From a virus: a stretch of 64,000 nucleotides of DNA. This document shows positions 2-35,047 of the stretch, in pieces. Below the pieces are notes generated by a model that searched no databases, was not told the DNA's origin, and saw nothing but the letters and a program-made list of their open reading frames with translations. The stretch lies in IMG/VR virus record IMGVR_UViG_3300020183_000008, positions 1 to 64,000 of that record. One strand, given 5' to 3'. A program made the position numbers and the translations under genes. How positions within the stretch are numbered: position 1 is the stretch's first letter; each line of letters begins with the position of its first letter.

Positions 2-3000
2 GGTTCCCTGAACTCCAGTAGTTCCTTGGACTCCGGTTACACCTTGGACTCCGGTTACACCTTGGACTCCTGTCGTGCCTTGGACTCCGGTTGCACCTTG
101 AACGCCTGTGGTACCTTGAACACCTGTCTGACCTTGGACTCCAGTAGTACCTTGAACACCAGTTACACCTTGAACGCCGGTTTCACCCTGAACACCTTGA
201 ACCCCTGTGGTTCCTTGGACTCCTGTCGTGCCCTGAACTCCGGTAGTTCCTTGGACTCCGGTAGTTCCTTGGACTCCGGTTACACCTTGAACCCCTGTAG
301 ATCCTTGGACACCAGTTTGACCTTGAACTCCGGTGGAGCCTTGCACACCTGTCGTGCCTTGAACACCGGTTGTACCCTGAACACCGGTTGTACCCTGAAC
401 TCCTGTTACACCTTGTACACCAGTGGCTCCTTGAACTCCGGTAGTTCCCTGAACACCTGTCGTACCTTGGACTCCAGTAGAGCCTTGGACTCCCTGAACA
501 CCTGTGGTTCCTTGGACTCCTGTCTGACCCTGAACACCGGTTTGACCTTGGACTCCCGTGTTTCCTTGGACTCCTTGGACTCCAGTTGCACCTTGAACCC
601 CAGTTTGACCTTGGACGCCCGTAGCACCTTGGACACCCGTGGATCCTTGAACTCCTGTCGTGCCTTGAACACCTGTTACTCCCTGAACACCAGTGACACC
701 TTGGACTCCGGTAGCTCCCTGAACACCAGTTGTGCCTTGAACACCGGTTGTACCCTGAACTCCGGTTACACCTTGAACTCCTGTAGATCCTTGGATGCCT
801 TGGACTCCAGTTACACCTTGTACACCTGTGGCACCTTGAACTCCCGTGGTTCCCTGAACACCTGTGGTTCCTTGGACTCCAGTAGTACCTTGGACTCCTG
901 TCGTACCTTGAACTCCGGTTGTGCCTTGAACTCCAGTGTTGCCTTGGACTCCTGTGGTTCCTTGAACACCTGTATTTCCTTGGACACCGGTCGCTCCTTG
1001 GACACCGGTCGCTCCTTGGACTCCAGTTACCCCCTGAACACCTGTAGCACCTTGGACTCCGGTGGCTCCTTGGACTCCGGTGGCTCCTTGGACTCCTTGG
1101 ACCCCAGTAGTACCTTGCACACCCGTTGCACCCTGAACACCTGTTGCACCCTGAACACCCGTTGCACCCTGAACACCTGTAGTTCCTTGGACGCCGGTGG
1201 TTCCTTGAACTCCCGTGGAGCCTTGGACACCTGTCGTGCCCTGAACACCCGTAACACCTTGAACTCCAGTATTTCCTTGAACCCCAGTATTACCTTGGAC
1301 TCCAGTATTACCTTGAACCCCTTGAACCCCAGTCTGACCTTGGACTCCTGTAGTTCCCTGAACACCGGTCGTGCCTTGAATACCGGTAGCCCCTTGGACT
1401 CCCGTAGATCCTTGGACACCGGTAGCCCCTTGAACTCCTGTGGTTCCCTGAACCCCAGTTTGACCTTGGACGCCCGTAGACCCCTGAACCCCAGTAGATC
1501 CCTGAACACCTGTCGCGCCTTGAACACCAGTGGCTCCCTGAATTCCCGTAGAGCCTTGAACACCGGTTGTGCCTTGAACACCTGTCTGACCTTGGACACC
1601 AGTCTGACCTTGAACACCGGTCGTACCTTGATTTCCTTGCACACCAGTTGTGCCCTGAACCCCTGTTACACCTTGTACTCCAGTTGCACCTTGAACACCG
1701 GTTGTGCCTTGAACACCTGTCTGACCTTGGACACCAGTCTGACCTTGAACACCGGTAGCTCCTTGGACGCCAGTAGTCCCCTGAACTCCGGTTACGCCTT
1801 GAACTCCGGTTGCACCCTGAACTCCTGTAGTTCCCTGTACACCTGTCGTGCCCTGTACACCTTGGACACCAGTTTCACCCTGAACACCTGTGGTGCCTTG
1901 AATACCTGTTCTACCTTGGACACCGGTTGTACCTTGGACTCCTGTCGTGCCCTGTACACCTGTGGCTCCTTGAACTCCGGTGAAACCTTGAACTCCCGTA
2001 GCTCCTTGGACGCCCGTGGTTCCCTGAACACCGGTAGCTCCTTGAACACCTGTGACACCTTGGACACCGGTCGTACCTTGGACACCTGTTGTGCCTTGGA
2101 CTCCAGTCTGACCTTGGACTCCTGTGGTTCCTTGGACACCTGTGACACCTTGGACACCAGTCGATCCTTGAACTCCAGTGGTACCTTGGACTCCAGTGGT
2201 ACCTTGGACACCTGTGACACCTTGCACCCCTGTGTTGCCTTGAACACCTGTCGTGCCCTGAACCCCTGTTACACCTTGGACTCCAGTAGCTCCTTGGACT
2301 CCAGTAGCTCCTTGGACTCCAGTGGCACCTTGAACACCAGTAGCTCCTTGGACGCCAGTAGCTCCTTGGACGCCAGTAGCTCCTTGGACACCTGTGGCTC
2401 CTTGGATTCCCGTCGCTCCTTGGACTCCCGTAGTTCCCTCAACACCTGTCGCACCTTGGACTCCAGTAGATCCCTGCACACCTGTAAAGCCTTGGATACC
2501 GGTTTCACCTTGCACTCCAGTAGTGCCTTGCAAACCTGTGGTTCCTTGGAACCCTGTCGCACCTTGAACACCTGTCTGACCTTGAACACCGGTAGTACCT
2601 TGAATACCTGTAGTACCTTGAATACCTTGAACACCAGTAGATCCTTGGACACCAGTGTTGCCTTGAACACCTGTGGTGCCCTGAATTCCTTGGACACCAG
2701 TGACACCTTGGACTCCTTGTACACCAGTAGCACCTTGCACTCCGGTTGCACCTTGAACTCCTGTCGCACCTTGAACACCTGTGGTTCCTTGTAATCCTGT
2801 TGCGCCTTGTACACCAGTTGCACCTTGAACGCCTGTCGCACCTTGGACTCCAGTGTCACCTTGAACACCAGTTTCACCTTGGACCCCAGTTGATCCCTGC
2901 ACTCCTGTGGATCCTTGGACTCCTTGGACACCTGTCTGTCCTTGGACTCCCGTAGTGCCTTGGACTCCTGTGGAGCCTTGAACACCTGTCGTGCCTTGTA

Positions 3001-6000
3001 CTCCGGTTGCACCTTGAACACCTGTAACACCTTGAACACCAGTCTGACCCTGAACACCGGTCGCGCCTTGAACACCGGTTGCACCTTGAACACCGGTTGC
3101 ACCTTGGACTCCTGTCGTGCCTTGGACACCTGTGGTTCCCTGTACACCTGTCGTGCCCTGTACACCTGTGGTTCCTTGAACACCTGTAGTTCCTTGGACA
3201 CCAGTCGATCCTTGGACACCAGTTGTTCCTTGGACTCCGGTTACACCTTGAACCCCTGTAGATCCTTGGACACCAGTCGATCCTTGGACACCCGTTTGAC
3301 CTTGGACTCCTTGGACACCAGTTGTTCCTTGGACACCAGTTACACCTTGTACACCTGTAACGCCCTGTACTCCTGTGTTTCCTTGAACTCCGGTTGCACC
3401 TTGGACTCCAGTATTTCCTTGAACTCCAGTCGCGCCCTGAATACCTGTATTGCCTTGGACTCCGGTTGTGCCCTGAACTCCAGTTACACCTTGGACTCCA
3501 GTAGATCCTTGAACACCAGTAGTGCCCTGAACTCCAGTGCTACCTTGAACACCGGTAGCTCCTTGAACTCCGGTAGTGCCTTGAACTCCGGTAGTGCCTT
3601 GAACTCCGGTAGTGCCTTGAACACCAGTTTGACCTTGTACACCTGTATTTCCCTGAACACCGGTTACACCTTGGACTCCGGTTACACCTTGGACTCCTTG
3701 GACACCAGTTACACCTTGAACCCCAGTATTTCCTTGAACTCCAGTATTTCCTTGAACTCCAGTCGAACCTTGAACCCCAGTAAATCCTTGGACACCCGTT
3801 GTACCTTGGACTCCTGTGGAGCCTTGTACTCCGGTCGTGCCCTGAATACCTGTTTGACCTTGAACACCGGTTACACCTTGGACTCCTGTAGTTCCCTGAA
3901 CCCCAGTTTGACCTTGAACTCCGGTTACACCTTGGACTCCTGTAGTTCCCTGAACCCCAGTTTGACCTTGAACTCCGGTTACACCTTGGACTCCTGTGGT
4001 TCCCTGAACTCCGGTTGCACCTTGAACTCCAGTGGCTCCCTGAACACCAGTCGTACCTTGGACTCCGGTTGCACCTTGGACTCCTGTGGTTCCCTGAACT
4101 CCAGTAGTTCCTTGGACTCCGGTTACACCTTGGACTCCGGTTACACCTTGGACTCCTGTCGTGCCTTGGACTCCGGTTGCACCTTGAACGCCTGTGGTAC
4201 CTTGAACACCTGTGGTTCCTTGGAGCCCTGTGGATCCTTGAACACCTGTAGATCCTTGGACACCCGTTTGACCTTGGACTCCTGTTACACCTTGAACACC
4301 TTGGACTCCTGTTACACCTTGGACTCCCGTTGAGCCTTGTACTCCAGTTGAACCTTGAACACCGGTTGCACCTCGGATACCTGTAACACCTTGAACACCG
4401 GTTGCACCTTGGATACCTGTAACACCTTGAACACCTGTAACACCTTGGACTCCAGTTTCACCTTGAACACCTGTGGTTCCTTGGACACCGGTTCTACCTT
4501 GTACACCAGTTGTGCCCTGAACTCCTGTCACCCCTTGGACTCCAGTTTCACCCTGTACACCTGTGGTTCCTTGAACACCTGTAGTTCCTTGGACCCCAGT
4601 CGATCCTTGGACTCCTTGGACCCCAGTAGTACCTTGCACACCCGTTGCACCCTGAACACCTGTAGTTCCTTGAACACCTGTAGTTCCTTGAACACCAGTT
4701 GAGCCTTGGACTCCCGTAGTTCCCTGAACACCTGTCGTGCCTTGAACACCTGTTACACCTTGAACACCGGTTTGACCTTGTACTCCAGTGGCACCTTGGA
4801 CACCTGTAACACCTTGTACTCCGGTTACACCCTGAACACCTGTCGTGCCTTGGACTCCGGTTGCACCTTGAACACCTGTAACACCTTGAACACCTGTCGT
4901 GCCTTGAACACCGGTTGTACCCTGAACACCTGTCGTGCCTTGGACTCCTGTCGTACCTTGAACACCAGTGGCTCCTTGAACTCCGGTAGTTCCCTGAACA
5001 CCTGTCGTACCTTGGACTCCAGTAGAGCCTTGGACACCTGTGGTTCCCTGAACACCTGTGGTTCCTTGAACACCAGTTGAGCCTTGGACTCCCGTAGTTC
5101 CTTGAACACCCGTTGCACCTTGGACTCCTGTATTTCCTTGAACACCCTGAAGACCCGTTGTGCCTTGAATTCCTGTCATTCCCTGAACACCGGTTGCACC
5201 TTGGACACCTGTAGTCCCTTGAACTCCAGTGGCTCCTTGAACTCCGGTTACACCTTGAACACCTGTGGTTCCTTGGACACCTGTGGTTCCTTGTAACCCT
5301 GTGATGCCTTGAACTCCCGTGGAGCCTTGGACTCCGGTAGATCCTTGAACACCCGTGAAGCCTTGGACTCCAGTAGATCCTTGAACTCCCGTGGATCCTT
5401 GGATGCCAGTCGTACCTTGGACTCCGGTTACACCTTGGACTCCAGTGGCTCCTTGAACTCCTGTCGTGCCTTGGACTCCGGTCTGACCCTGGACTCCGGT
5501 TGCACCTTGAACACCAGTTGAGCCTTGCACTCCTGTGGTTCCCTGAACACCTGTGACTCCTTGGACACCCGTGGATCCTTGAACTCCTGTCTGCCCTTGT
5601 ACTCCCGTGGATCCTTGGACACCAGTGGATCCTTGCACTCCAGTAGTTCCTTGGACACCAGTGGATCCTTGCACTCCAGTAGTGCCTTGGACACCAGTGG
5701 ATCCTTGCACTCCAGTAGTTCCTTGGACTCCTGTGGCTCCTTGGACTCCTGTGGCTCCTTGGACTCCTGTGGCTCCTTGGACACCCGTGGCTCCTTGGAC
5801 TCCTGTGGCTCCTTGGACTCCTGTGGCTCCTTGGACTCCTGTAGCCCCATCAACACCAAACACACCCGTAGCCCCTTGGACTCCGGTTGCACCTTGAACA
5901 CCTGTAGTCCCTTGAACCCCAGTAACACCCATGTCACCAGCGGGTGCAAAAGAAACTACAACTTGCTGTCCGTTGACGAAATTGTTGGATGCATCAACGT

Positions 6001-9000
6001 AGTTTACGGTGATAATTCTCCAGTTAGAACCTCCAAACCCTGTACCATTTGTTACATTCGTAACTTTGAATTTAGCATAAACAGTCTGGTCGCTTCCTAA
6101 GTGGAAAATCAAATAGCCCTTAGTAGGATTCGTTGATTGTTTCCAAGAATCTAACCAACCTGAAACAGATGGATCGAGAGAGTCTAAGTTATTGAAAACA
6201 TCGATATAGATGAATCCAGGATTCATCGAGCTGACTGTACCAGATGAAAATCTAAAGTATGACCCACCTGGACGCGAGGCTGATGTACTGTCGGAGAAGT
6301 AATAATATTCACTATAACCGCTTATAGGACCTTGGCTTCCAGTGACACCTTGGACACCTGTAGCTCCTTGGATGCCTGTGGTACCTTGGACTCCAGTAGT
6401 ACCATCGATTCCGCGAACACCAGTTAAACCCTGAACTCCTGTTTGACCTTGAACACCGGTTTCACCTTGGACTCCAGTTACACCTTGAATTCCCTGAACA
6501 CCTGTCGTGCCTTGGACACCAGTGGCACCTTGGATGCCAGTTTCACCTTGGATCCCCGTGGTGCCTTGAACTCCTGTCTCACCTTGCACACCAGTGCTTC
6601 CCTGAACTCCTGTGGTGCCTTGGACGCCCGTAGCACCCTGTACACCTGTAGCACCCTGTACACCCGTAGCTCCCTGAACACCTGTGGCTCCTTGGACTCC
6701 AGTAGCTCCTTGGACGCCCGTAGCTCCCTGAACACCTGTGGCTCCTTGGACGCCCGTAGCTCCTTGGACGCCCGTAGCTCCTTGGACGCCCGTAGCTCCT
6801 TGGACGCCCGTAGCTCCTTGGATGCCTGTAGCTCCTTGGACTCCTGTTGTGCCTTGAATTCCGGTTTGACCTTGGACTCCCGTAGCCCCTTGGACACCAG
6901 TCTGACCTTGGACTCCTGTGGCTCCTTGGACTCCGGTTACGCCTTGCACCCCTGTCTCACCTTGAACACCAGTAGCACCTTGAACTCCGGTTGTGCCTTG
7001 AACTCCAGTGTTGCCTTGGACTCCTGTCGTGCCTTGAACTCCGGTTGTGCCTTGAACTCCAGTGTTGCCTTGGACTCCTGTCGTGCCTTGAACTCCAGTG
7101 GAACCTTGGACTCCCGTAGCTCCTTGAACACCAGTGGAACCTTGGACTCCCGTAGCTCCTTGAACACCAGTGGAACCTTGAACCCCCGTAGCTCCCTGAA
7201 CACCTGTTGTGCCTTGGACACCTGTGGTGCCTTGGACTCCAGTAGCTCCTTGGACACCTGCCGTGCCCTGAACCCCTGTTACACCTTGTACTCCAGTAGC
7301 TCCTTGGACTCCAGTAGCTCCTTGGACTCCTTGGACTCCTGTCGCTCCTTGGACTCCTGTCGTGCCTTGGACTCCAGTAGCTCCTTGGACACCTGTTACA
7401 CCTTGGACTCCAGTAGCACCTTGCACACCCGTTGCACCCTGAACACCGGTTGTACCCTGAACTCCTGTCGTGCCTTGGACTCCCGTGGTTCCTTGGACTC
7501 CAGTCGTCCCTTGTACACCGGTTTGACCTTGAATACCCGTAGATCCTTGGACACCTGTGGCTCCTTGGACTCCTGTCGCTCCTTGGACTCCTGTTGTGCC
7601 TTGGACTCCAGTAGCTCCTTGGACACCTGTTACACCTTGGACTCCAGTCGTACCCTGAACTCCAGTAAATCCTTGGATCCCTGTTTGACCTTGGACTCCA
7701 GTAGTTCCTTGGACTCCCGTTGTTCCCTGAATACCTGTGTTACCTTGGACTCCCGTCGTGCCTTGAATCCCGGTGGAGCCTTCAACTCCTGTCGTACCTT
7801 GGACACCGGTTACACCCTGAACCCCAGTCGCTCCTTGAACACCGGTTGTGCCTTGCACTCCCGTTGCACCCTGAACCCCAGTTGCTCCCTGAACACCGGT
7901 TGAGCCTTGCACTCCCGTTGCACCTTGAACTCCTGTCGTACCTTGGATACCGGTGACCCCTTGGACTCCGGTTAGACCTTGAACACCGGTGGTTCCTTGA
8001 ACTCCAGTAGCTCCTTGAACTCCAGTATTTCCTTGGACACCGGTGACCCCTTGGACTCCGGTTAGACCTTGAACACCGGTGGTTCCTTGAACTCCTTGGA
8101 CTCCGGTAGCTCCTTGAACTCCAGTATTTCCTTGGACACCTGTGGTGCCTTGGACTCCGGTAGCTCCTTGAACTCCAGTATTTCCTTGGACACCGGTGGT
8201 TCCTTGAACTCCAGTGGCTCCTTGGACACCTGTGGTGCCTTGGACTCCAGTTACACCTTGAACTCCCGTAGTTCCTTGAACTCCAGTAGCTCCTTGAACT
8301 CCAGTTGTACCTTGGACACCAGTAGCTCCTTGGACACCTGTTACGCCTTGGACTCCGGTTGCACCTTGAACCCCAGTGGTTCCCTGAACGCCTGTTGTGC
8401 CTTGGACTCCGGTAGCTCCTTGGATTCCGGTAGCTCCTTGGACTCCGGTAGCTCCTTGAACTCCAGTATTTCCTTGGACACCTGTGGTGCCTTGGACTCC
8501 CGTGGAGCCTTGGACACCTGTCGTGCCCTGAACACCCGTAACACCTTGAACTCCAGTATTTCCTTGGACACCGGTGGTTCCTTGAACTCCCGTGGAGCCT
8601 TGGACACCTGTCGTGCCCTGAACACCCGTAACACCTTGAACTCCAGTATTTCCTTGAACACCGGTCATTCCTTGGATACCCGTTGTTCCTTGGACACCTG
8701 TCGTGCCCTGAACACCCGTAACACCTTGAACTCCAGTATTTCCTTGAACACCGGTCATTCCTTGGATACCCGTTGTTCCTTGAACACCTGTCTGTCCTTG
8801 AAGACCTGTCTGACCTTGAACTCCCGTGGTTCCTTGAACTCCGGTTACACCTTGGACTCCGATTACGCCCTGAACTCCGGTTACACCCTGAACTCCGGTC
8901 GTGCCTTGAACTCCTTGGACACCTGTCGCACCTTGGACACCAGTAGCACCTTGAACACCAGTAGTGCCCTGAACTCCAGTGCTACCTTGAACACCGGTAG

Positions 9001-12000
9001 CTCCTTGAACACCGGTAGCTCCTTGAACTCCGGTAGTGCCTTGAATACCAGTCGTGCCTTGAATACCAGTCGTGCCTTGAATACCGGTTTCACCTTGGAC
9101 ACCAGTTGCACCTTGGACACCAGTTGTACCTTGGACACCGGTTACCCCTTGAATCCCCTGTACACCTGTGGATCCTTGCACACCGGTTGAGCCTTGAACA
9201 CCTGTCGTACCCTGGACACCAGTGGTTCCTTGAACTCCAGTGAACCCTTGAATACCTGTTACACCTTGGACTCCGGTTTCACCTTGTACACCTGTGGCTC
9301 CTTGAACTCCCGTGGAACCTTGAACTCCCGTAGCTCCTTGAACTCCTGTGGTTCCTTGAACTCCTGTGGTTCCTTGAACTCCCGTGGTTCCCTGAACACC
9401 AGTTACTCCTTGGACACCAGTTGCACCTTGGACACCAGTAGCACCTTGGACACCAGTTGCACCTTGGACACCTGTTTCACCCTGAATACCAGTCTGACCT
9501 TGCACACCTGTGGTGCCTTGGACTCCGGTAGTGCCTTGAACACCTGTGGTTCCTTGGACCCCTGTGGATCCCTGAACACCTGTGGTTCCTTGGACTCCAG
9601 TGGCACCCTGTACACCTGTAGATCCTTGAACTCCAGTGGAACCTTGAACTCCCGTAGCTCCTTGAACTCCAGTGGAACCTTGAACTCCCGTAGCTCCTTG
9701 AACACCCGTTGCACCTTGCACTCCAGTAGACCCTTGAACTCCGGTTGTGCCTTGCACTCCTGTTTCACCTTGGACTCCTTGAACACCAGTAGCTCCTTGA
9801 ACTCCTGTAGTTCCCTGAACACCAGTTTGACCTTGGACTCCGGTTTCACCTTGAACTCCTTGAACACCAGTTGTACCTTGCACTCCAGTCTGACCTTGGA
9901 CACCTGTCGTGCCTTGAACTCCTTGAACACCAGTTGTGCCTTGGACTCCGGTTGCCCCTTGAACCCCTGTAAATCCTTGAACACCTGTTAAACCCTGAAC
10001 TCCTTGAACACCTGTTAAACCCTGTACACCGGTTGTACCATCTACACCAAAAACACCGGTTGCACCCTGAACACCGGTTGTTCCAAAATCGCCTGCCGGT
10101 GCAAATGAGACGATCAATTCCTGATTATTTTGGAAAAGGTTTGATGCATCAACATAATTAACGGTAACGATTCTCCAGTTCGTTCCACCTAGACCTGTTC
10201 CATTTTCAACATTCAGAATTCTAAATTTTGCATAAATAGTCTGATTGTCACCTAGGTGGAAAATCAAATAACCTTTAGTAGGATTTGTTGATTGTTTCCA
10301 AGAGTCCAACCAACGATATACGGACTCATCGAGATTCGATGCAGTAAAGGCATCGATATAAACAAATCCTGGTGTCATCGTAGCCGGATTTGCCGCTGAA
10401 AATCTTACGAATGATGCACCAGGTCTTGATGCTGTGGTGCTAGTTGAAAATTTGTAATATTCACTATTTCCGCTGATAGGTCCTCGGTTACCTGTAGGTC
10501 CTTGCAAACCTGTGGCACCTTGGATTCCTGTTGTACCTTGAACTCCAGTCAAACCCTGAATTCCGGTGATCCCCTGAACACCAGTTTCACCTTGGACACC
10601 TGTGGCACCTTGAATTCCAGTGTCACCCTGAACTCCAGTTAAACCCTGAACTCCTTGGACACCTGTAGCTCCTTGGATTCCAGTTTCTCCTGTGCCTTGA
10701 ATACCTGTGGCTCCTTGAACACCCGTGCCACCACCAGGGATACCCGTAGCACCTTGGATTCCAGTTTCACCCTGTACCCCCTGTACCCCCGTGGTTCCTT
10801 GGACTCCTGTTGTGCCTTGGACTCCTGTCGTGCCTTGGACTCCTGTCGTGCCTTGGACTCCAGTAGTTCCCTGAACACCTGTCGTGCCTTGGACGCCAGT
10901 GGCACCTTGAATACCTGTTAAGCCAACTGGACCTTGAATACCGATTTGACCTGTCGCACCTTGAACGCCAGTAGACCCTTGCACTCCCGTGGTGCCTTGA
11001 ACGCCTGTTACACCTTGAACCCCTGTAGATCCTTGGACACCAGTAGATCCTTGAACACCAGTAGATCCTTGGACACCTGTAGCACCTTGAACACCAGTCT
11101 CACCTTGGACACCAGTATTACCTTGAATACCTGTGGAGCCTTGGACTCCAGTTTCACCTTGGATACCAGTCTCACCTTGCACCCCTGTGGAGCCTTGAAC
11201 ACCGGTTTCACCTTGGACTCCAGTGTTGCCTTGGACTCCTGTCGTGCCTTGAACTCCAGTGGAACCTTGGACTCCCGTAGCTCCTTGAACACCAGTGGAA
11301 CCTTGGACTCCCGTAGCTCCTTGAACACCAGTGGAACCTTGAACCCCCGTAGCTCCCTGAACACCTGTGGTTCCTTGGACTCCAGTAGCTCCTTGGACTC
11401 CAGTAGCTCCTTGGACTCCAGTAGCTCCTTGAACTCCAGTAGCTCCTTGAACTCCCGTAGCACCCTGAACACCTGTTGCACCCTGCACACCTGTCGTGCC
11501 TTGGACACCTGTGGTGCCTTGGACTCCAGTAGCTCCTTGGACACCTGTCGTGCCCTGAACCCCTGTTACACCTTGTACTCCCGTTGCACCCTGAACACCT
11601 GTCGTGCCTTGTACACCTGTGGTTCCTTGGACTCCAGTAGCTCCTTGGACTCCAGTCGTCCCTTGTACACCGGTTTGACCTTGAATACCCGTAGATCCTT
11701 GGACACCCGTGGCTCCTTGGACTCCTGTCGCTCCTTGGACTCCTGTCGTGCCTTGGACTCCAGTAGCTCCTTGGACACCTGTTACACCTTGGACTCCAGT
11801 AGCACCTTGCACACCCGTTGCACCCTGAACACCGGTTGTACCCTGAACTCCTGTCGTGCCTTGGACTCCCGTGGTTCCTTGGACTCCTGTCGTTCCTTGG
11901 ACCCCTGTGGATCCCTGAACCCCCGTGCTTCCTTGAACCCCAGTAGATCCCTGAACACCTGTCGCGCCTTGAACACCAGTGAAGCCTTGGACTCCTGTGG

Positions 12001-15000
12001 TGCCTTGAACTCCTGTAACACCTTGCACTCCTGTCGTGCCTTGCACACCGGTTGCACCTTGAACTCCTGTCGAACCTTGGACACCGGTTGCACCTTGGAC
12101 TCCTGTCGTGCCTTGGACTCCGGTTGCACCTTGAACGCCTGTGGTACCTTGAACACCTGTCTGACCTTGGACTCCAGTAGTACCTTGGACTCCTGTTGCC
12201 CCTTGGACACCAGTATCTCCTTGCACACCCCGAACACCGGTCTGACCTTGGACTCCAGTAGCACCTTGGACACCAGTTGAGCCTTGAACTCCAGTTAAAC
12301 CAACCGGACCTTGAATACCTATTTGACCAGTAGCACCTTGGACACCAGTTGCACCTTGAATACCGGTTGTGCCTTGCACTCCTGTGGTGCCTTGTACTCC
12401 CGTTGTTCCCTGAATACCCGTTGCACCTTGCACTCCAGTAGACCCTTGAACTCCGGTTGTGCCTTGCACTCCTGTTTCACCTTGCACACCTGTCGTGCCT
12501 TGTACTCCCGTTGTTCCCTGAATACCCGTTGCACCTTGCACTCCAGTAGACCCTTGAACTCCGGTTGTGCCTTGCACTCCTGTTTCACCTTGCACACCTG
12601 TCGTGCCTTGGACACCCGTTGCACCTTGCACTCCAGTAGACCCTTGAACACCCGTAGTGCCTTGGACTCCGGTAGCTCCTTGGACTCCAGTTGCACCTTG
12701 AACACCAGTCGTACCTTGGACTCCTGTGGTGCCTTGAACACCAGTTACTCCCTGAACTCCCGTAGCTCCCTGAACACCTGTCGTACCTTGGACTCCTGTA
12801 GCACCCTGAACACCTGTCGCGCCTTGAACACCAGTGAAGCCTTGGACTCCTGTGGTGCCTTGAACACCTGTAGTGCCTTGAACACCAGTTTCACCTTGGA
12901 CACCTGTTGTGCCTTGAACACCTGTAGTGCCTTGAACCCCAGTTTGACCTTGAACTCCGGTGGAGCCTTGCACACCTGTCGTGCCTTGAACACCGGTTGT
13001 ACCCTGAACACCGGTTGTACCCTGAACTCCTGTTACACCTTGTACACCAGTCGAACCCTGGACTCCTGTGGATCCTTGGACTCCAGTGTTACCTTGAACA
13101 CCAGTAGCTCCTTGGACTCCGGTTACACCTTGGACTCCCGTAGTGCCTTGGACACCCGTTGCACCTTGGACTCCGGTATTTCCTTGAACACCTGTGAATC
13201 CTTGCACACCAGTTAAACCAACAGGACCTTGAGTACCTATCTGACCGGTGACTCCTTGAACTCCTGTAGATCCTTGGACTCCGGTAGTACCCTGAACACC
13301 CTGAACACCGGTTGCACCTTGGACTCCCGTTGTGCCCTGTACTCCAGTAGCTCCTTGAACACCTGTGGTGCCTTGAATTCCGGTGGCACCCTGAACTCCG
13401 GTTACGCCTTGGACACCCGTCTCACCTTGAACTCCGGTGGTGCCTTGGACACCCGTGGTTCCTTGGACACCAGTTACACCTTGGACTCCAGTTTGTCCTT
13501 GAACACCCGTAGCACCCTCAACTCCGGTTGCACCTTGGACTCCAGTGGCACCCTGTACACCGGTGGTGCCTTGGACTCCAGTAGTTCCTTGGACTCCCGT
13601 TGTTCCCTGAATACCTGTGTTACCTTGGACTCCCGTCGTGCCTTGAATCCCGGTGGAGCCTTCAACTCCTGTCGCTCCTTGGACACCTGTTGTGCCTTGG
13701 ACTCCAGTTGTGCCTTGTACCCCAGTTTGACCTTGAACACCAGTTGAGCCTTGGACACCTGTAGTTCCCTGAACACCTGTCGCGCCTTGGACTCCTGTAT
13801 TTCCTTGAACACCTGTAGAACCTTGAACACCAGTCTGACCTTGGACACCTGTAGCTCCTTGAACACCAGTGGTTCCCTGAACACCGGTAGTTCCCTGAAC
13901 ACCAGTCTGACCTTGAACACCAGTAGTTCCATGAACACCAGTAGTTCCCTGAACACCAGTTACTCCTTGAAATCCAGTCTGACCTTGAACACCAGTAGCA
14001 CCTTGCACTCCTGTCGTGCCTTGGACTCCAGTTACGCCTTGGACTCCTGTCGTGCCTTGGACTCCCGTGGTGCCTTGCACTCCTGTCGTGCCTTGGACTC
14101 CAGTTACGCCTTGGACTCCTGTCGTGCCTTGGACTCCTGTCTGACCTTGGACACCAGTTACACCTTGTACACCGGTTACACCCTGTACTCCTGTGTTTCC
14201 TTGAACCCCAGTAGATCCCTGAACACCTGTCGCGCCTTGAACACCAGTGGCTCCCTGAATTCCCGTAGAGCCTTGAACTCCAGTTTCTCCTTGAATTCCT
14301 TGAACTCCGGTAGATCCTTGGACTCCTGTCTGACCCTGAATACCTGCCACACCCTGAACACCAGTAGCACCTTGATCACCTGCTGGAGCAAAGGTTACAA
14401 TCAACTGTTGACCATCTACGAACAAATCGGATGCATCGACATATTCAACCGTAACAAGACGCCAGTTTTCCCCACCGAAGCCGCTTCCATTTTCAACGCT
14501 AATAACTTTGAATTTTACGTAAACACTTTGATCATCACCTAGGTGGAAAATCAAATAACCCTTGGTGGAATTAGTTGCACTATCCCAACTATCGATCCAC
14601 GCCGCGACCGAAGGATCAAGAGATCCTTGGTTCGTAAAGGCATCGATATAAACGTAGCCTGGAGTCATCGAACTTGGGTCATCCGATGAAAATTTCACAT
14701 AAGTTCCACCAGGACGTGTTGCACTCGTATCTGAAGAGAATATGTAATATTCACTATACCCGCTGATAGGTCCTCGGTTACCGGTGACACCTTGGACACC
14801 GGTTGCACCTTGAATACCGGTCATTCCTTGAACACCGGTCATTCCTTGAACACCCTGAACACCGGTCGTACCTTGGACACCGGTTGCACCTTGCACTCCA
14901 GTCTCACCTTGTACACCGGTATCACCTTGTACACCTTGAACACCGGTCGTACCTTGGACACCGGTTGCACCTTGCACTCCAGTCTCACCTTGGACACCAG

Positions 15001-18000
15001 TGGTTCCTTGAACACCAGTAGCTCCCTGGACTCCTGTGGCTCCATCTACACCTGTAGCCCCTTGAACTCCCGTAGTTCCTTGGACTCCTGTAGCCCCCTG
15101 AACACCTGTCGTGCCTTGGACTCCTGTGGCACCCTGAACACCAGTGGCTCCTTGGACTCCCGTGGTTCCTTGGACACCTGTCGTTCCTTGGACACCTGTG
15201 GCACCATCTACACCAAAAACACCGGTTGCACCTTGAACTCCTGTAGCACCTTGCACACCCGTTGCACCCTGAACACCGGTTGTACCCTGAACTCCTGTCG
15301 TGCCTTGGACTCCCGTGGTTCCTTGGACACCTGTCGTTCCTTGGACCCCTGTGGATCCCTGAACCCCCGTGCTTCCTTGAACCCCAGTAGATCCCTGAAC
15401 ACCTGTGGTGCCTTGAACACCAGTTTCACCTTGGACACCGGTTGCACCTTGGACTCCTGTCGTGCCTTGAACACCTGTCTGACCTTGGACTCCAGTGGCT
15501 CCCTGAACTCCTGTTTCACCTTGAACACCTGTTTCACCTTGAACACCAGTTCTACCTTGGATGCCTGTCTGACCTTGGACACCTGTCGTGCCTTGCACAC
15601 CGGTTGCACCTTGGACTCCTGTCGTGCCTTGCACACCGGTTGCACCTTGGACTCCTGTCGTGCCTTGCACACCGGTTGCACCTTGAACTCCTGTCGAACC
15701 TTGCACACCGGTCTGACCTTGGACTCCAGTGGAGCCTTGAACACCAGTCTGACCTTGGACTCCTGTGGTGCCTTGAACACCAGTCTGACCTTGGACTCCA
15801 GTGGCTCCTTGGACACCTGTCTGTCCTTGGACTCCAGTGGCTCCTTGCACTCCCGTTGAACCTTGCACTCCCGTTGAACCTTGGACTCCTGTGGAACCTT
15901 GCACTCCCGTTGAACCTTGGACTCCCGTAGCCCCTTGGACTCCCGTTGAACCTTGGACTCCCGTAGCCCCTTGGACTCCTGTGGAACCTTGCACTCCCGT
16001 TGAACCTTGGACTCCTTGGACTCCAGTAGATCCTTGGACTCCCGTTTGACCTTGAACACCGGTCTGACCTTGGACTCCAGTAGCACCTTGGACACCAGTT
16101 GAGCCTTGAACTCCGGTTAAACCAACCGGACCTTGAATACCTATTTGACCAGTAGCACCTTGGACACCAGTAGCACCTTGGACACCAGTAGTGCCCTGTA
16201 CCCCTTGGACTCCTGTGGAACCTTGGACTCCTGTTGTGCCTTGGACTCCTGTGGCTCCCTGAACGCCTGTCGAACCTTGGACTCCGGTGGCTCCTTGGAC
16301 TCCGGTGGCTCCTTGGACTCCTGTAGTCCCTTGAACTCCAGTAGCACCTTGAACACCAGTTGATCCTTGAACTCCAGTAGCACCTTGAACACCAGTTGAT
16401 CCTTGAACACCAGTTGATCCTTGGACTCCCGTGGTGCCTTGAACACCGGTAGCTCCTTGGACCCCTGTAGTGCCTTGAACACCAGTTGATCCTTGGACCC
16501 CTGTAGTGCCTTGAACACCTGTAGCTCCTTGGACCCCTGTAGTGCCCTGTACACCTGTGGCACCTTGGACTCCTGTTTCACCTTGGACTCCTGTAGTTCC
16601 TTGAACTCCAGTCGATCCTTGGACACCGGTTCTACCTTGTACACCTGTAGCACCTTGGACACCCGTAGCGCCTTGGACTCCTGTCTGACCTTGGACACCA
16701 GTTACACCTTGGACACCTGTGGTTCCTTGGACACCTGTAGTGCCTTGCACTCCTGTGGTTCCTTGGACTCCAGTGGTGCCTTGAACGCCCGTGGTACCTT
16801 GGACTCCTTGAACCCCAGTGGCTCCTTGGACACCTGTTACACCTTGCACTCCCGTTGTGCCTTGGACTCCTGTTGCACCTTGAACGCCCGTGGTGCCTTG
16901 AACACCTGTATTTCCTTGAACACCTGTATTTCCTTGGACTCCTGTCGTGCCTTGGACTCCTGTCGTGCCTTGGACTCCTGTCGTGCCTTGCACTCCTGTC
17001 GTGCCTTGGACTCCAGTTACGCCTTGGACTCCTGTCTGACCTTGGACACCAGTTACACCTTGTACACCGGTTACACCCTGTACTCCTGTGTTTCCTTGAA
17101 CCCCAGTAGATCCCTGAACACCTGTCGCGCCTTGAACACCAGTGAAGCCTTGGACTCCTGTAGCACCCTGAACTCCGGTTGTTCCTTGAACACCAGTCTG
17201 ACCTTGGACACCTGTGTTACCTTGGACTCCAGTGGTGCCTTGAACACCAGTAGTTCCATGAACCCCAGTGGTGCCTTGAACACCGGTCTGACCTTGGACA
17301 CCAGTAGCACCTTGGACACCAGTTGAGCCTTGAACTCCGGTTAAACCAACCGGACCTTGAATACCTATTTGACCAGTAGCACCTTGGACACCAGTAGCAC
17401 CTTGGACACCAGTAGTGCCCTGTACACCTGTCGTGCCTTGGACTCCTGTCGTGCCTTGGACTCCTGTGGAACCTTGGACACCAGTTACACCTTGGACTCC
17501 TGTGGATCCCTGAACACCAGTGGCTCCTTGGACTCCTGTCGTGCCTTGGACTCCTGTGGAACCTTGGACACCAGTTACACCTTGGACTCCTGTGGATCCC
17601 TGAACACCAGTGGCTCCTTGGACACCAGTTGAGCCTTGAACACCAGTAGTTCCCTGAACCCCTGTCGCTCCCTGGACACCTGTGGCTCCTTGGACTCCAG
17701 TTGTTCCCTGAACTCCGGTAGTTCCTTGGACTCCCGTAGCTCCTTGGACTCCGGTTGTGCCTTGCACTCCTGTGGTTCCCTGCACCCCGGTTCTGCCTTG
17801 AACTCCAGTTTCACCTTGAACACCTGTCTGACCCTGTACTCCTGTGGCTCCCTGAACGCCTGTCGAACCTTGGACTCCGGTGGCTCCTTGGACTCCGGTG
17901 GCTCCTTGGACTCCTGTAGTCCCTTGAACTCCAGTAGCACCTTGAACACCAGTTGATCCTTGAACTCCAGTAGCACCTTGAACACCAGTTGATCCTTGAA

Positions 18001-19780
18001 CACCAGTTGATCCTTGGACTCCCGTGGTGCCTTGAACACCTGTTACACCTTGCACTCCCGTAGCACCTTGAACGCCCGTGGTGCCTTGAACACCTGTATT
18101 TCCTTGGACTCCTGTATTTCCTTGGACTCCTGTCGCGCCTTGGACTCCTGTCGCGCCTTGGACTCCTGTCGCGCCTTGAACCCCAGTGCTTCCTTGCACT
18201 CCCGTCTGACCCTGAACCCCAGTGCTTCCTTGCACTCCTGTAGCTCCTTGGACTCCTGTAGCTCCTTGGACTCCTGTGGCTCCTTGGACACCTGTCTGTC
18301 CTTGGACTCCCGTAGTGCCTTGGACACCTGTAGTGCCTTGCACTCCTGTGGTTCCTTGGACTCCAGTGGTGCCTTGAACGCCCGTGGTACCTTGGACTCC
18401 CGTAGTTCCCTGAACACCTGTCGTGCCTTGGACTCCTGTGGCACCCTGAACACCAGTGGCTCCTTGGACTCCCGTAGTTCCCTGAACACCTGTCGTGCCT
18501 TGGACTCCTGTAGAACCTTGTACACCAGTCGCACCTTGGACACCTGTAGCGCCTTGAACTCCTGTCGTGCCTTGGACTCCTGTAGAACCTTGTACACCTG
18601 TAGCGCCTTGGACACCAGTAGCACCTTGTACACCAGTCACACCGTACTGACCAGTTTGACCTTGAGCACCTTGAAGACCATCAGATCCGGTTACACCTTG
18701 AACACCAGTTTCACCTTGAACACCTGTTACACCTTGAACACCAGTTAAACCGACAATACCTGTGATACCTTGAACACCTGTTTGTCCGTAGATACCTGTA
18801 ATACCTTGAACACCTGTTTCACCAATAGCACCTTGCAAACCGGTTTCACCCGCAACACCGGTTTGACCTTGGACACCTGTAAATCCTGAAGGACCTTGTA
18901 CACCTTGTACACCTGTTGATCCTTGAACACCCGTGCGACCTTGAATACCCGTTGATCCTTGAACACCACCAACACCAGTAGCACCTTGAACACCAGTGAA
19001 ACCTGGACCTTGCAGACCTGTAGCACCCTGAACACCAGTGTTTCCGAGGGGACCTTGAACACCTGTCTGCCCAGCAACACCTTGAACACCTGTCTGCCCA
19101 GCGACCCCTGTGGCACCTTGGACACCAGTTTCACCTTGGACACCTGTAGATCCTTGAACTCCCTGAACTCCGGTAGCTCCTTGGACACCAGTGTCGCCTT
19201 GAACTCCGGTTGCACCCTGAACGCCGGTGGTTCCTTGAACACCTTGAACACCTGTGGTTCCTTGAACCCCAGTTCTTCCTTGGACACCTGTTACACCCTG
19301 AACTCCAGTTTGACCTTGAACACCTTGAACACCGGTACCACCTTGAAGACCTTGAGATCCTTGGATACCTTGCAATCCTTGGATACCGGTGTTGCCTTGA
19401 ACACCTTGGACTCCCGTGGTTCCCTGAACACCTGTGCTACCTTGAACACCCGTGGTTCCTGAAATACCTGTACTACCTTGAACACCAGTGAAACCTGGAC
19501 CTTGCAGACCTGTAGCACCTTGTGAGCCGATACCTGTCGTACCTTGCACACCAGTTACACCTTGCAGACCTCTAATACCCGTGGTGCCTTGTTGTGATTG
19601 AATCGTCGCAAACGAAGGCTTCCACTGTGAATCAGAAATGTCGAAGTAGTAAAACGCGTTAATGTTTTTAACGTAGCGTACTTCGTTTTCTTGAGGTGAG
19701 ACAACGCTAGATAAATCAGCGATGTTGTTTACAGCATAGGTGATTGCATAGGCTAATTGTTGGTAAAACGGAGTGCTCAT
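2..19780 (-). CDS. Giant collagen-like (Gly-X-Y) protein, at least 6593 aa, 3' end outside the window; probable virion fibre
   Basis: Manual translation: ATG at 19780 preceded by AAAGGA gives [65 protein letters not shown], then (G-V/I-Q-G-A/T/V/S/E/Q-T)n. The same frame was checked at the three globular inserts and at position 4. The long antisense shadow ORFs (starts 26, 2915, 6443, 8069, 14792, 18959) all keep one frame. The ORF track would list it if a stop existed. Confidence 0.93.
5939..6328 (-). repeat. Globular insert domain, copy 3
   Basis: [45 protein letters not shown]...[24 protein letters not shown]...[13 protein letters not shown]...SFAPA. Confidence 0.92.
10094..10480 (-). repeat. 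Globular insert domain, copy 2
   Basis: [45 protein letters not shown]...[24 protein letters not shown]...[13 protein letters not shown]...SFAPA. Confidence 0.92.
14381..14770 (-). repeat. Globular insert domain, copy 1 (~130 aa), in the collagen protein
   Basis: [45 protein letters not shown]...[24 protein letters not shown]...[13 protein letters not shown]...TFAPA. Confidence 0.92.
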
Positions 19781-19951: not shown

Positions 19952-21436
19952 GTGAATACTCTTAGTCTTTGTATGATTGTCAAAAATGAAGAATCTACGA
20001 TCGAAAGATGCTTAAATTCAACGCAAGATGTTTGCGATGAAATCATCATAGTAGATACGGGAAGTACCGACCGCACCAAAGAAATATTAAAGTCTTTTCC
20101 AAAAGTGAAAATTTTCGATTTCACATGGGTAGAGGACTTCGCTGCGGCGCGTAACGAAAGTTTCCGACACGCAACGAGCGACTTAATGTTCTGGTTGGAT
20201 GCGGATGATGTACTCAAAGAAAAAGACGTCCAAATTCTTCGCAAATACAAAAGCACCCCCTTGAATCAATTAGCTGACTGCTACGTTGGTAAATATCAAT
20301 ATAGCCATGATAGTTATGACAATGTTCTAACAACGCTGATGCGAGAAAGAATCTTTAAAAGAAGCCCTTTAATTAAATGGAAATACAAAATTCACGAGTG
20401 TATCCCCCTCAACTGCTTCCGAAAAGTAGAAAATACAGATTTTGAAGTACACCACTACAAGACTGCCCCTCAAATTCAAAGATCTGAGGGTAGGAATTTA
20501 AGAATACTAAAAGCGTGCGTAGATGATCCATCCGAGCGGTGCCCGCGCTATGAATTTTATTATGCCAAAGAATTAGCTATCGTTAGAAAGTATGATGAAG
20601 CCGTAACATGGTTTAAGGAATACTTAAAGCACTGGGATTTTTTCGAAGATGCCCATTACGCTTATTATAAATTAGCTGAAATCGCTCTTGAGAAAAGAGA
20701 TTTCGATGAAGCAGTCAATCAATGCATGGATGCTTTAAAATTAGACATGCGGAAAGCCGACCTGTATTGCTTGCTAGGTTTGATTTTCATAAATCGTGAG
20801 CGTTGGGACTTGGCGAAATTCTGGTACGAGGCTGCTCTAAATATGCCAAGACCCGATGACTCATACGGATTCTTCGATATGGACAGACACACCTTCTCAC
20901 CAAACTTTCAGCTTTCTTATGTTTTTTATAAACTTGGAGATTTCGATTCTGCTTTAAAACATATCAACAGGTGTTTGCAATTTAGACCTAAAGACCATCA
21001 AGCTCTCGTGAACAAGGCTTTTATAGAAAAAGAACAAAAACTAAAAATAAGAAAGAATCACCACAACCTAGCTATTTATATCCCCTTCTCATTTGATGAG
21101 AACAACCCAAACATTAGAATTCGCAAACTGAATTTAGTTGAAGAACTCAAAAACAAAAATCTGGATGCAGATATCATTCAAGATTTTCCAAGTTTGATGA
21201 ACTATGACAGAATCATCGCGCATAGCCCCTTGAACCCCAAAGAGATGAGACTACTACAAAGAAGCGGGAAAGTGGTGTGCTTAGATATAGCTGAAGGGGT
21301 ATTCTCGAATTCATTTGATGAACAAATAAGCAAATATGATATAGTTTTATGCTCCTCTAGTAAAATCAAAGAATATTGCTTAAACTTGAACATGAATTCA
21401 GTTCATCTTCCTGATAGTCATGAGGCTTCAATATGA
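19952..21436 (+). CDS. GT2 glycosyltransferase with TPR repeats, plus a C-terminal half of a GT-B fold
   Basis: LSLCMIVKNEE, IVDTGSTDRT, DFAAARN, WLDADD (DxD), IHE and RNLRIL motifs; helical TPR-like repeats follow. Confidence 0.9.
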   Translation: MNTLSLCMIVKNEESTIERCLNSTQDVCDEIIIVDTGSTDRTKEILKSFPKVKIFDFTWVEDFAAARNESFRHATSDLMFWLDADDVLKEKDVQILRKYKSTPLNQLADCYVGKYQYSHDSYDNVLTTLMRERIFKRSPLIKWKYKIHECIPLNCFRKVENTDFEVHHYKTAPQIQRSEGRNLRILKACVDDPSERCPRYEFYYAKELAIVRKYDEAVTWFKEYLKHWDFFEDAHYAYYKLAEIALEKRDFDEAVNQCMDALKLDMRKADLYCLLGLIFINRERWDLAKFWYEAALNMPRPDDSYGFFDMDRHTFSPNFQLSYVFYKLGDFDSALKHINRCLQFRPKDHQALVNKAFIEKEQKLKIRKNHHNLAIYIPFSFDENNPNIRIRKLNLVEELKNKNLDADIIQDFPSLMNYDRIIAHSPLNPKEMRLLQRSGKVVCLDIAEGVFSNSFDEQISKYDIVLCSSSKIKEYCLNLNMNSVHLPDSHEASI

Positions 21437-23778
21437 TTTCCGTTGTTTGGTGCGGAATGGGTGGCGGATCCTACGCCGCAAAACAATTGCGCCCAATGAT
21501 CGAATCTCTTGGTATGAAATTGACAATCATATCGGAATGGGCAGATGCGGATGTGCCCTGGAAAATAGATACATGGCAAGAAGAAGTTAAGAAGCATGAC
21601 ATCGTTATCTGCCCTACGGATCAAAACAAATTTCCATTCAAAGGGAATAACAAAGTCACCCATTTTATGGCTTTGGGTATGCCTGTCATCGCTTCACCTC
21701 TTCAGTCCTATAGAGAAATAATCGAACATGGCGTGTCGGGCTTCATCGCAGACAATTTCTCAGATTGGAAAAAGCATCTTAAAACTTTACGGGACAACCA
21801 CGATTTAAGAAAAACGATCGGTGAAACAGCGCGAAGTAAAGTGACAAAAGAATATTCGATCCAATCCACCGCTGATAAAGTTCTTTCTTTATTTGAAAAT
21901 CAGTCTAAAACTATTGATATCATCATCCCGAATTACAATAACACCCGCTATCTTCTCACGACACTCGAAAGCCTAAAACGCAACACTGTCGGTTTGTACA
22001 AGGTAGCCATCGTTGATTCATCTTCAGATGACATCTCACCGATAGAGAATTTCGTAGAGAAAAACTCAAATAATTTTTCCCTTTGGCGATTACCTGTACG
22101 TTCGTGCTTTTCAAAAGCCGTGAATTTAGGAATGTCTCGTACAGGTTCAAAATGGGTTATGGTGGGAAATAACGACTTGCTTTTTACCAAAGGATGGGAT
22201 GCCCCACTTCGAGAATTTTTAGAAAAAAATCCAAATGCTATGGTTCAACCTCTTTCGAATTGTGACAAAGGTTGGTTACATAACTATGAATTGAAAACAA
22301 AAAGCGGTCTCTCTTTGGAAGCTGGTATCCACAAGCTCGATACCGTGGACATCTTTGATATTGAACAAAGCACTCTAACTCGAAATGAAATCATCGAACG
22401 TGAAAAACTAGCATTTTATAGTGTTATTTTTGATCGTCGGTTATTAAGTCTAATCGGTGACCTTGATGAAGAGTTTCTGAATGGTGGCGAAGATTTCGAT
22501 TTTTGCTACCGAGCTCGGAAAGCGGGGTGGTCATTTTTTTCAATTCATAACTCTTTTGTTTTTCATTTTGGAGGAAAAACCCGAAAAGTCTCTGAAGATG
22601 AAAATTATGAGAGACACCATGAAGAAGATAGGTACAATAATTCGAGACTAAATCGAAAACTTTCAAAATCCGTTGTTGCATTTTATTTAGGCGCTGGTTG
22701 GGAAAAATGGGATGAAACAAATCTCATTTCTGGTGGTATTGGGGGAAGCGAAACAGCAGCGATCTGGATGGCAAGAGAATTGTCTAAGTTCGGCTATCAG
22801 GTAAAAGTTTTTGCTGATCCTGCACATGAACATCAGGACTCTAGTGGATTGGATGTTGAGTATATCCACTACAGTAAATTTAAAAGGTACGCTGAAAAAA
22901 CTTTCATCGACTTTTTAGTTTGCTCAAGAACAGTGGAACCTTTGCACGGGTTGATCCATGCTTATAGAAAATACGTGTGGATTCATGATGTGTTTATCGG
23001 TTCCAACCGAAACATGGATGTATGTCTCGATGATGTGACTAAATACCTCGTGTTGTCCGAATGGCACCGTGATTTTGTTTCTGAACATCACAGTATTCCC
23101 AAAAACAAAATCTTCATGACGACAAACGGCATAGATCCGAATAGATACGCTGAAGTCAACAACATCAAGAAGGTTCAAGGTCAAATCTTTTATTCTTCAT
23201 CCCCAGATAGAGGTCTGGATACGCTCTTGTATCTAGGTGAATATCTAAAAGATCGTGTACCTAATTTCAAAATCAAAGTCGCTTATGGCTTCAATAACTG
23301 GGAAAAAGCAGTTCTATTTAGAAATAATCCTAGAGAAGTTGAAGAAATGAGAAAGCTGAAAGAGGCTTTAAAGCGACCTTTCGTGGATTTCTTGGGACGT
23401 ATTGACCAGAATCAACTTGCAAAAGTTCAGATGGAATCATCGGCTTGGATGTACCCTAGCCGGTTCACTGAAACGAATTGCATCACAGCTATCGAGGCAG
23501 GTTGGTCTAAAAACGCGATTTTAGCGACACATCTTGCGGGTGTAACCACTACCGTAAAAGATGGAGGGACTCTTATCCACGGAGATGCATACACGAAAGA
23601 ATATCGAGAGAAATTCTTAAATGAAGCGGTAAAATTACTGAACGATCAAGAATACCTGATCGAGCAACAAGAACGAGCCTACGCCCGTATGCAAAGGTTT
23701 ACTTGGGCTAACGTCGCAAAACAATGGCATGAAATGTTCCAACAAGATGTTTACAAGGAAATTCAATGGTCACCTTAA
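21433..23778 (+). CDS. Multidomain glycosyltransferase (GT-B C-terminal half + GT2 + GT4-like)
   Basis: MALGMPVIASP; IDIIIPNYN...NNDLLF...GEDFDFCYRA...HFGGKT; GGSETA...YSSSPDRGL...YPSRFTETNCITAIEA; ATGA overlap with the upstream gene. Confidence 0.9.
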   Translation: MISVVWCGMGGGSYAAKQLRPMIESLGMKLTIISEWADADVPWKIDTWQEEVKKHDIVICPTDQNKFPFKGNNKVTHFMALGMPVIASPLQSYREIIEHGVSGFIADNFSDWKKHLKTLRDNHDLRKTIGETARSKVTKEYSIQSTADKVLSLFENQSKTIDIIIPNYNNTRYLLTTLESLKRNTVGLYKVAIVDSSSDDISPIENFVEKNSNNFSLWRLPVRSCFSKAVNLGMSRTGSKWVMVGNNDLLFTKGWDAPLREFLEKNPNAMVQPLSNCDKGWLHNYELKTKSGLSLEAGIHKLDTVDIFDIEQSTLTRNEIIEREKLAFYSVIFDRRLLSLIGDLDEEFLNGGEDFDFCYRARKAGWSFFSIHNSFVFHFGGKTRKVSEDENYERHHEEDRYNNSRLNRKLSKSVVAFYLGAGWEKWDETNLISGGIGGSETAAIWMARELSKFGYQVKVFADPAHEHQDSSGLDVEYIHYSKFKRYAEKTFIDFLVCSRTVEPLHGLIHAYRKYVWIHDVFIGSNRNMDVCLDDVTKYLVLSEWHRDFVSEHHSIPKNKIFMTTNGIDPNRYAEVNNIKKVQGQIFYSSSPDRGLDTLLYLGEYLKDRVPNFKIKVAYGFNNWEKAVLFRNNPREVEEMRKLKEALKRPFVDFLGRIDQNQLAKVQMESSAWMYPSRFTETNCITAIEAGWSKNAILATHLAGVTTTVKDGGTLIHGDAYTKEYREKFLNEAVKLLNDQEYLIEQQERAYARMQRFTWANVAKQWHEMFQQDVYKEIQWSP

Positions 23779-34685: not shown

Positions 34686-35047
34686 TATTCCACCCCATCC
34701 TCTTCAGGTTTTAATTGGAGGATTTTATTTCTAACATTCTTATCAATCTTATTAGATGATTGATTACTTGAATTTTCCATTTTTAATTCAGGGAATCTTA
34801 CATTTGCAAGATGTTTAAGCACAACTTGTAAAGATGATATTTTTCTGTTCAAGCGAATCAATTCATTTTCGGCTGAACGAATCAGACTTTGATCTTGAAA
34901 ATTATCAGCGTACTGGTCACGATAAAACTTCTGAATATCAGAAACTTTTGCTGTCAGCTCATGCAAATCGCGCTCAATACGAGATGCATTTTCACAAACT
35001 TGCTTATGGTGATTTTTCGCTGAGGTTTGGTTAGACAACCTTTTCAT
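34685..35047 (-). CDS. Hypothetical coiled-coil protein
   Basis: 120-aa ORF coupled to both TerL and portal. Confidence 0.6.
   Translation of the reverse strand: MKRLSNQTSAKNHHKQVCENASRIERDLHELTAKVSDIQKFYRDQYADNFQDQSLIRSAENELIRLNRKISSLQVVLKHLANVRFPELKMENSSNQSSNKIDKNVRNKILQLKPEEDGVE

Follow-up and report, generated by a model that had tools for sequence, protein, structure and literature searches.

A giant collagen-like fibre gene of a tailed phage carries beads of a widespread, unnamed fibre domain

Introduction

Combinations of collagen-like segments and globular modules are already known from phage fibres. The closest described systems to the locus considered here are the collagen-like side-tail-fibre proteins of EPclB type from E. 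coli O157:H7 prophages; in these the module Pf2 stands between two collagen domains, and trimerisation of the flanking modules PCoil and PfC has been shown by experiment (Ghosh et al. 2012, PMC3368898). The subject of this study is a collagen-like fibre gene encoding at least 6593 aa, found in the IMG/VR virus record IMGVR_UViG_3300020183_000008, and in particular three globular domains of 129-130 aa, here called beads, that lie within its collagen. The window, that is, the whole stretch of DNA analysed, is the first 64 kb (positions 1 to 64,000) of this 155,270-bp record, for which CheckV gives a completeness of 35%. Like an EPclB-type protein, the giant gene encodes a phage fibre with a non-collagen module between collagen domains. 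The collagen domains of the EPclB type are only 27-322 aa long, however, and where PCoil forms an alpha-helical coiled coil, a mainly beta fold is predicted for the bead. Nor is the bead one of the modules named for those fibres: no Pfam match to Phage_fiber_2 (Pf2, PF03406), PfN or PfC was obtained for the beads or for the N-terminal domain of the giant protein.

In function, the closest described system is the NC2 domain of the FACIT collagen IX, an internal non-collagenous domain that drives trimerisation and sets the chain register, according to that part of PMC8968730 which cites Boudko and Bachinger 2012. NC2 stands between triple-helical segments, as the beads would under the mechanism we propose below, and the analogy is one of function alone; unlike the bead, NC2 has ~35 residues and belongs to an animal heterotrimeric collagen. 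The bacterial collagens Scl1, Scl2 and BclA offer a further comparison, having a Thr/Gln-rich, hydroxyproline-free helix that is nucleated by an adjoining globular trimer, the V domain in Scl1/Scl2 and the C-terminal domain in BclA (PMC8968730). In each of these, one collagen domain, tens to a few hundred residues long, is combined with a terminal nucleating domain, in contrast to the internal and repeated beads of the giant gene.

Three homologous beads within a giant collagen

The giant gene occupies positions 2..19780 of the minus strand as a single open frame without a stop, its C-terminus missing and the contig starting within the gene. The start is an ATG at 19780 with AAAGGA 11 nt upstream, and both strand and frame are fixed by the homology of the beads to other proteins. 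The product reads (G-V-Q-G-x-T)n nearly throughout, and only four stretches depart from Gly-X-Y: an N-terminal domain of 64 aa (19589..19780, minus strand), presumed to be the virion anchor, and the three beads, which lie on the same strand at 14381-14770 (bead 1, aa 1671-1800), 10094-10480 (bead 2, aa 3101-3229) and 5939-6328 (bead 3, aa 4485-4614). A word search for a homologue of giant size, 3626-11538 aa, returned none.

The original prediction, made from the sequence alone, held that the three beads are homologous domains entered and left in collagen register, and on both counts it was right. The beads align with one single-residue gap at 65-69% identity and have 78 invariant positions in common, among them all the motifs that had been listed ([38 protein letters not shown] and FAPAGD); bead against bead within the genome, the E-values range from 1e-64 to 3e-96, far beyond chance. 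Collagen abuts each bead on both sides, with ...G-x-x-G-P-I-S-G at the entry and F-A-P-A-G-D-x-G-x-T-G at the exit, and there is no linker at either end.

The collagen itself, assigned by an analysis of Gly spacing, falls into four segments, whose lengths in nm are computed at 0.286 nm per residue. C1 (14771..19588; 1606 aa, 459 nm) has a few true register breaks near aa 83, 94 and 258, and C2 (10481..14380; 1300 aa, 372 nm) is irregular in a single place, aa 3016-3029, which lies ~75 aa ahead of bead 2. C3 (6329..10093; 1255 aa, 359 nm) is uninterrupted, and C4 (2..5938; at least 1979 aa and at least 566 nm) contains neither an interruption nor a bead; all four lie on the minus strand. We class the flanks as collagen triple helix repeats, Gly-X-Y being unbroken over the 418 triplets of C3 and the at least 659 of C4; the runs that follow beads 1, 2 and 3 thus number 433, 418 and at least 659 triplets. 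The beads had been described as regularly spaced, about 4.2 kb or 360-460 nm apart. Their start-to-start distances of 4290 and 4152 nt and the lengths of the first three segments agree with this, but the last segment exceeds the interval and the array is not strictly periodic.

The composition of the helix is as monotonous as its register. Position X is Val in 51% of triplets and position Y is Gln in 49.5% and Thr in 48%; the ~6140 collagen residues include 11 Pro and no Lys, many 100-aa windows of the collagen hold 0-2 charged residues, and Cys occurs nowhere in the protein. Since the collagen is without Cys and Lys and almost without Pro, only the globular domains could lock the chain register.

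The bead belongs to a large and unnamed fibre domain family

Neither Pfam nor NCBIfam has a family for the beads (in Pfam, neither the beads nor the N-terminal domain gave anything at E<=1), the only PHROGs row was an insignificant one (phrog_38771 on bead 3, E 0.12), and a sequence profile search of the PDB with the beads gave a best E of 0.41. A pattern search of viral contigs with the three-bead alignment likewise found no match, the patterns being too specific. The way into the family was a weak tblastn match to a protein of Pelagibacter phage HTVC010P annotated as tail fibre (AGE60292), in which the domain occurs twice in tandem ahead of a short Gly-X-Y run, and hhalign of the bead profile against this tail fibre gave a probability of 94.7%. 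With the three-bead profile, hmmsearch against 1.84 billion representative proteins recovered 1042 clusters at E<=1e-3, of which 180 reach E<=1e-10, with E-values down to 7e-48; most of the clusters are phage proteins of tail-fibre type with 2-8 copies in tandem. A word-based search from one relative gave more than 1200 proteins, nearly all annotated as "hypothetical"; according to Pfam, a few of these have a T7 tail-fibre N-terminal domain, Collar, Laminin_G_3 or Collagen, and some others are located in alphaproteobacterial genomes.

The 150 best proteins, 204-1695 aa in length, contain 450 copies of the domain, 1-8 each and mostly 2-3. The N- and C-terminal parts of the relatives match PHROG tail-fibre and tail-protein families, and the domain forms a repetitive shaft between the anchor and a separate tip. 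All 63 aligned family rows (100%) have the terminal Gly of the domain, and among the 150 best proteins a G-[DNE] ending that starts a Gly-X-Y run is present on 342 of the 423 full-length copies (81%). The runs after the copies have a median of 3 triplets, 96% having at least 2 and 10% at least 10, and the longest has 47; at least 3 triplets follow 64% of copies and precede 56%. The normal design of the family is thus a bead, a short triple-helical junction of 2-3 triplets and another bead. We conclude that the domain is a module of ~115-130 aa in the fibre proteins of phages and some giant viruses, widespread and unnamed. A literature search gave no description of the bead domain, and the family is thus undescribed in the libraries and papers searched. 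The idea that the domain is dedicated to a very long helix is not borne out, the domain being a common phage tail-fibre module that usually stands in tandem.

The giant gene follows this design on another scale. Like the HTVC010P tail fibre and the metagenomic phage fibres, it has serial copies of the domain, and each of its three beads has the invariant C-terminal Gly, the G-[DN]-x-G ending and the Gly-X-Y run that this opens. Unlike them, with their 350-1700 aa, 2-8 copies and junctions of ~2-47 triplets, it has junctions of 418 to at least 659 triplets, and its spacers are ~10x the maximum among the 150 best relatives. It is the extreme of a series: P0151 has a collagen run of 348 aa (116 triplets), a 172-kb record encodes adjacent collagen proteins of 2013 and 1456 aa with one bead each, and a minus-strand open reading frame (ORF) of 4452 aa in a 211-kb record (L057, G001:C1:104601-124600) has 420 aa of collagen, a bead and 707 aa of collagen (~235 triplets). 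Beside its ~1100 aa of collagen and single bead, this last protein has two large non-collagen regions, the first residues of each including the motif "TSPDGVNWT".

Within the family the three beads are not typical. They have three small insertions and extra aromatic residues, and the acidic positions best conserved in the family are substituted: D19, present in 95% of the family, is replaced by R, and D63-D64, present in 90%, by D/K and S/Q, so that the chemistry of this site is not that of the other members; in place of the hallmark motifs D-x-D-P-G-x-G and D-D-S-T the beads have R-P-G-G/A and D/K-S/Q-A/S-T. On these sequence differences we treat them as a divergent subfamily, in common with P0006, P0007 and the beads of two metagenome contigs described below. 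The beads are 62-73% identical within the gene and between phages, and are as similar to the beads of other phages as to one another.

Predicted fold of the bead

The structure prediction and Foldseek search that had been suggested for the bead were run on the monomer, and gave a confident model that matched no solved fold. A single-chain AlphaFold2 (AF2) model of bead 1 (mdf376d892a65), built from a 69-row alignment, has seven strands and one helix, with a predicted local distance difference test (pLDDT) score of 89 and a predicted template modelling (pTM) score of 0.85; it replaced a model built with only the three bead copies as alignment, for which the pLDDT was 58.7. This model supports the view that the beads are folded domains. 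Against the PDB, Foldseek gave a best E of 0.03 with template modelling (TM) scores below 0.41, and the best VIA wide Z was 6.3; the rows obtained were beta-barrels and tail-tube-like proteins at noise level only. Among predicted structures, by comparison, the BFVD yielded 41 viral proteins at E<=1e-3, with TMq 0.65-0.83 and ~130 of the 132 residues covered. The annotation is collagen triple helix repeat in almost every case; Synechococcus phages are among the sources, as are Marseillevirus-, Indivirus- and Klosneuvirus-like metagenomic giant viruses. Matches in the ESM Atlas were confined to unnamed Uroviricota clusters.

Orthologues and the missing end of the gene

The neighbour of the giant gene, a glycosyltransferase of family GT2 with tetratricopeptide repeats (GT2+TPR), has 57%-identical homologues in three viral records, and at the same position in each of these stands a collagen gene of the same style, which has a 54%-identical N-terminal domain and runs off the contig end (L059:3-8444, L060:3-4385 and L058:1-2961, all on the minus strand). 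The N-terminal domain of 64 aa matches nothing in Pfam or PHROGs and has no homologue among shorter proteins. The orthologues contain no copy of the bead; the domains inserted into them, 83, 101 and 132 aa long, are unrelated to it and stand at different positions. The record to which L059 belongs (G004, with L138 and L139) is 355,874 bp long and is rated complete by IMG/VR on account of a "direct terminal repeat". That repeat, though, is 87 bp within the collagen repeats, the contig being broken inside the collagen gene, and is probably an assembly overlap or collapse rather than a true genome terminus. At the other end of the record (L138:2-889, plus strand), collagen of 169 aa is followed by a head of ~127 aa and a stop, so that the gene would encode at least about 3100 aa if both ends were joined. 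Neither the inserts nor this C-terminal head has a Pfam, PHROG or PDB sequence match; the head may be of C1q/BclA-like type.

The C-terminus of the giant protein can be sketched from two metagenome contigs (L140:3-1448 and L141:3-1310, both plus strand) that end inside (GVQGxT)n collagen. In each, the collagen leads to a bead 61-67% identical to those of the giant gene, then ~8 triplets, a tip domain of 85-105 aa and a stop, and one of the two contigs has a further gene in common with this phage (49% identity). From this architecture and the gene in common, we expect that the missing 3' end of the giant gene probably holds a further bead and a tip. The tips that follow the last bead differ between the two contigs. 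With a 225-aa relative (P0007) as the query, the tip of the L141 type was located in 46 viral contigs, where other shafts precede it; it appears to be a widely exchanged module.

Origin of the spacing

The spacer lengths rest on the metagenome assembly of repetitive DNA. In a k-mer analysis, the longest exact internal repeat was 203 nt and 12.5% of the gene lay in exact repeats of at least 100 nt, and long-range exact repeats were enriched at offsets of 4086-4386 nt. A marker, GVFGVDG, follows beads 2 and 3 at matching distances, and the ~100-aa collagen stretch before each bead has more charged and hydrophobic residues. The ~4.2-kb spacing is most likely the result of duplication of a unit made up of collagen, the ~100-aa approach and a bead, followed by block shuffling, and not a functional period. 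Neither the bead-free collagen of at least 1979 aa after bead 3 nor the unrelated inserts of the orthologues fit a periodicity of 4.2 kb that is required.

What the beads may do

We propose that the giant protein is an ordinary beaded tail-fibre shaft whose short collagen junctions have lengthened to 418, 433 and at least 659 triplets, and that the result would be a collagen rope of ~1.8 micrometres or longer with occasional beads. With triple-helix-forming sequence directly at either end of a bead, three copies would have to come together at every bead position, where they would form an in-line trimeric node. The invariant terminal Gly may mark the point at which the chains converge on the axis, and the nodes would clamp three identical chains, giving the adjacent collagen a fixed register and a folding nucleus. 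Such a clamp would matter because the helix, without Cys or Lys and almost without Pro or charge, holds little register information. A role for the beads in nucleating or registering the helix is plausible on these sequence features, and we see an even chance that they are in-line trimeric junction modules which pin the chains and set the register of the neighbouring collagen.

Several observations weigh against this proposal. The longest collagen segment runs for at least 1979 aa (566 nm) without a bead or a register break, and the orthologue in the 355,874-bp record has at least 1497 aa of bead-free collagen after its insert; such runs imply that nodes are not needed at a fixed interval, and together with the unrelated inserts of the orthologues they leave it unsupported that the periodic nodes of the original prediction are a requirement. 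The inserts fit swappable functional modules at least as well as they fit a dedicated clamp. Furthermore, the altered acidic positions may mean that the subfamily works differently from the rest of the family.

Alternatively, the beads might be knobs along the fibre, lectin-like or otherwise adhesive, that bind the host or another surface and provide multivalent long-range capture of cells or particles. The swapping of inserts among orthologues that keep the N-terminal domain is typical of the host-interaction parts of phage fibres, and in the two close relatives the last bead lies only ~8 triplets from the C-terminal tip. The aromatic residues that had first prompted talk of lectin-like knobs are real, at 14.5-16.7% against 10.1 +/- 1.7% for the family (2.5-3.5 standard deviations above its mean), but nothing in the Foldseek or VIA comparisons points to a lectin fold: no lectin, carbohydrate-binding module (CBM) or receptor-binding fold rose above the noise, a CBM6 row having a TM score of 0.27. 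Bead identity, moreover, is higher than would be expected of a fast-evolving binding surface, and in the relatives the domain builds the shaft and leaves the tip to a separate domain. We regard adhesive knobs as a rather unlikely account of the beads. It is unlikely, too, that the beads are inert leftovers or hinges in a shaft whose junctions were expanded by slippage and unequal recombination, although the many shuffled internal repeats, the tolerance of long bead-free stretches and the continuous range of junction lengths, from 1-47 triplets in the 150 best relatives through 116 and ~235 to those of the giant gene, would all suit such an origin. Against this, all three beads have intact open frames and their invariant positions include every motif of the subfamily; moreover, their similarity to the beads of other phages equals their mutual similarity, a sign of continued purifying selection.

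Finally, the spacing or the whole arrangement might be an artefact of assembly, with repeats collapsed, expanded or mis-joined. The contig does end within the gene, breaks of related contigs likewise fall in their collagen genes, the 87-bp "terminal repeat" of the 355,874-bp record is located in collagen repeats, and exact repeats of at least 100 nt make up 12.5% of the gene. Against this, even the longest exact repeat has only 203 nt, synonymous sites are diverse, the frame is open over 19.8 kb and neither C3 nor C4 contains a register break; and the beads and their approach sequences are distinct, so that their order is anchored. An artefact is very improbable. The proposal of in-line trimeric junctions remains the one that we favour.

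Genomic setting

The source of the window is a tailed phage of very large size. A large terminase subunit (35044-36894) was recognised by PHROGs, and the window also encodes a portal (32997-34685) and a clamp loader and sliding clamp of bacterial type (41390-43887); for an ORF at 37629-39278, there was no tblastn match in the phage collection. A gene on the minus strand (30740-32245), situated between the portal and the glycosylation cluster described next, encodes a protein of 501 aa with a very high content of Gly, Ser and Ala (e.g., GGGGSGGG runs), which is not in Gly-X-Y register and has no Pfam or PHROG match.

The divergent neighbours of the collagen gene (19952..24413, plus strand) were identified by Pfam matches as the GT2+TPR glycosyltransferase, a GT1/GT2/GT4 fusion and a methyltransferase. 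The glycosyltransferase/methyltransferase cluster as a whole comprises 19952-24413 on the plus strand and 25243-28024 on the minus strand, and stands head-to-head with the collagen gene; the pairing of glycosyltransferase and collagen gene is kept in the three related phage records. In collagen of the BclA type, Thr is glycosylated, and the glycosyltransferase genes adjoining the giant gene form a parallel to this. The neighbouring glycosyltransferase and methyltransferase genes are candidates for the enzymes that would glycosylate the Thr-rich collagen, and, given the share of Thr at the Y positions, BclA-like O-glycosylation of the helix is a testable idea.

Significance

These findings contribute two points. 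One is a large unannotated domain family of at least 1042 clusters, without a Pfam, NCBIfam or PDB counterpart, whose members are wired together by Gly-X-Y junctions; it represents a good target for a first structure and a Pfam entry. The other is the extreme of this design, in which spacers an order of magnitude beyond those of the best relatives consist of a helix with almost no register information. The giant gene thereby makes testable how a long, low-complexity homotrimeric collagen folds in register without hydroxyproline, cysteine knots or charge pairs.

This leads us to a broader and more doubtful speculation, namely that the bead family might be a portable "collagen clamp", a trimeric beta-domain whose C-terminal Gly lies on the three-fold axis and seeds the helix in a fixed register, strings of such clamps allowing homotrimeric collagens free of Pro and Cys to reach thousands of residues. 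If this were true, an unannotated family of more than 1000 clusters would represent a new class of collagen nucleation domain, and would offer a tool for making long recombinant collagens.

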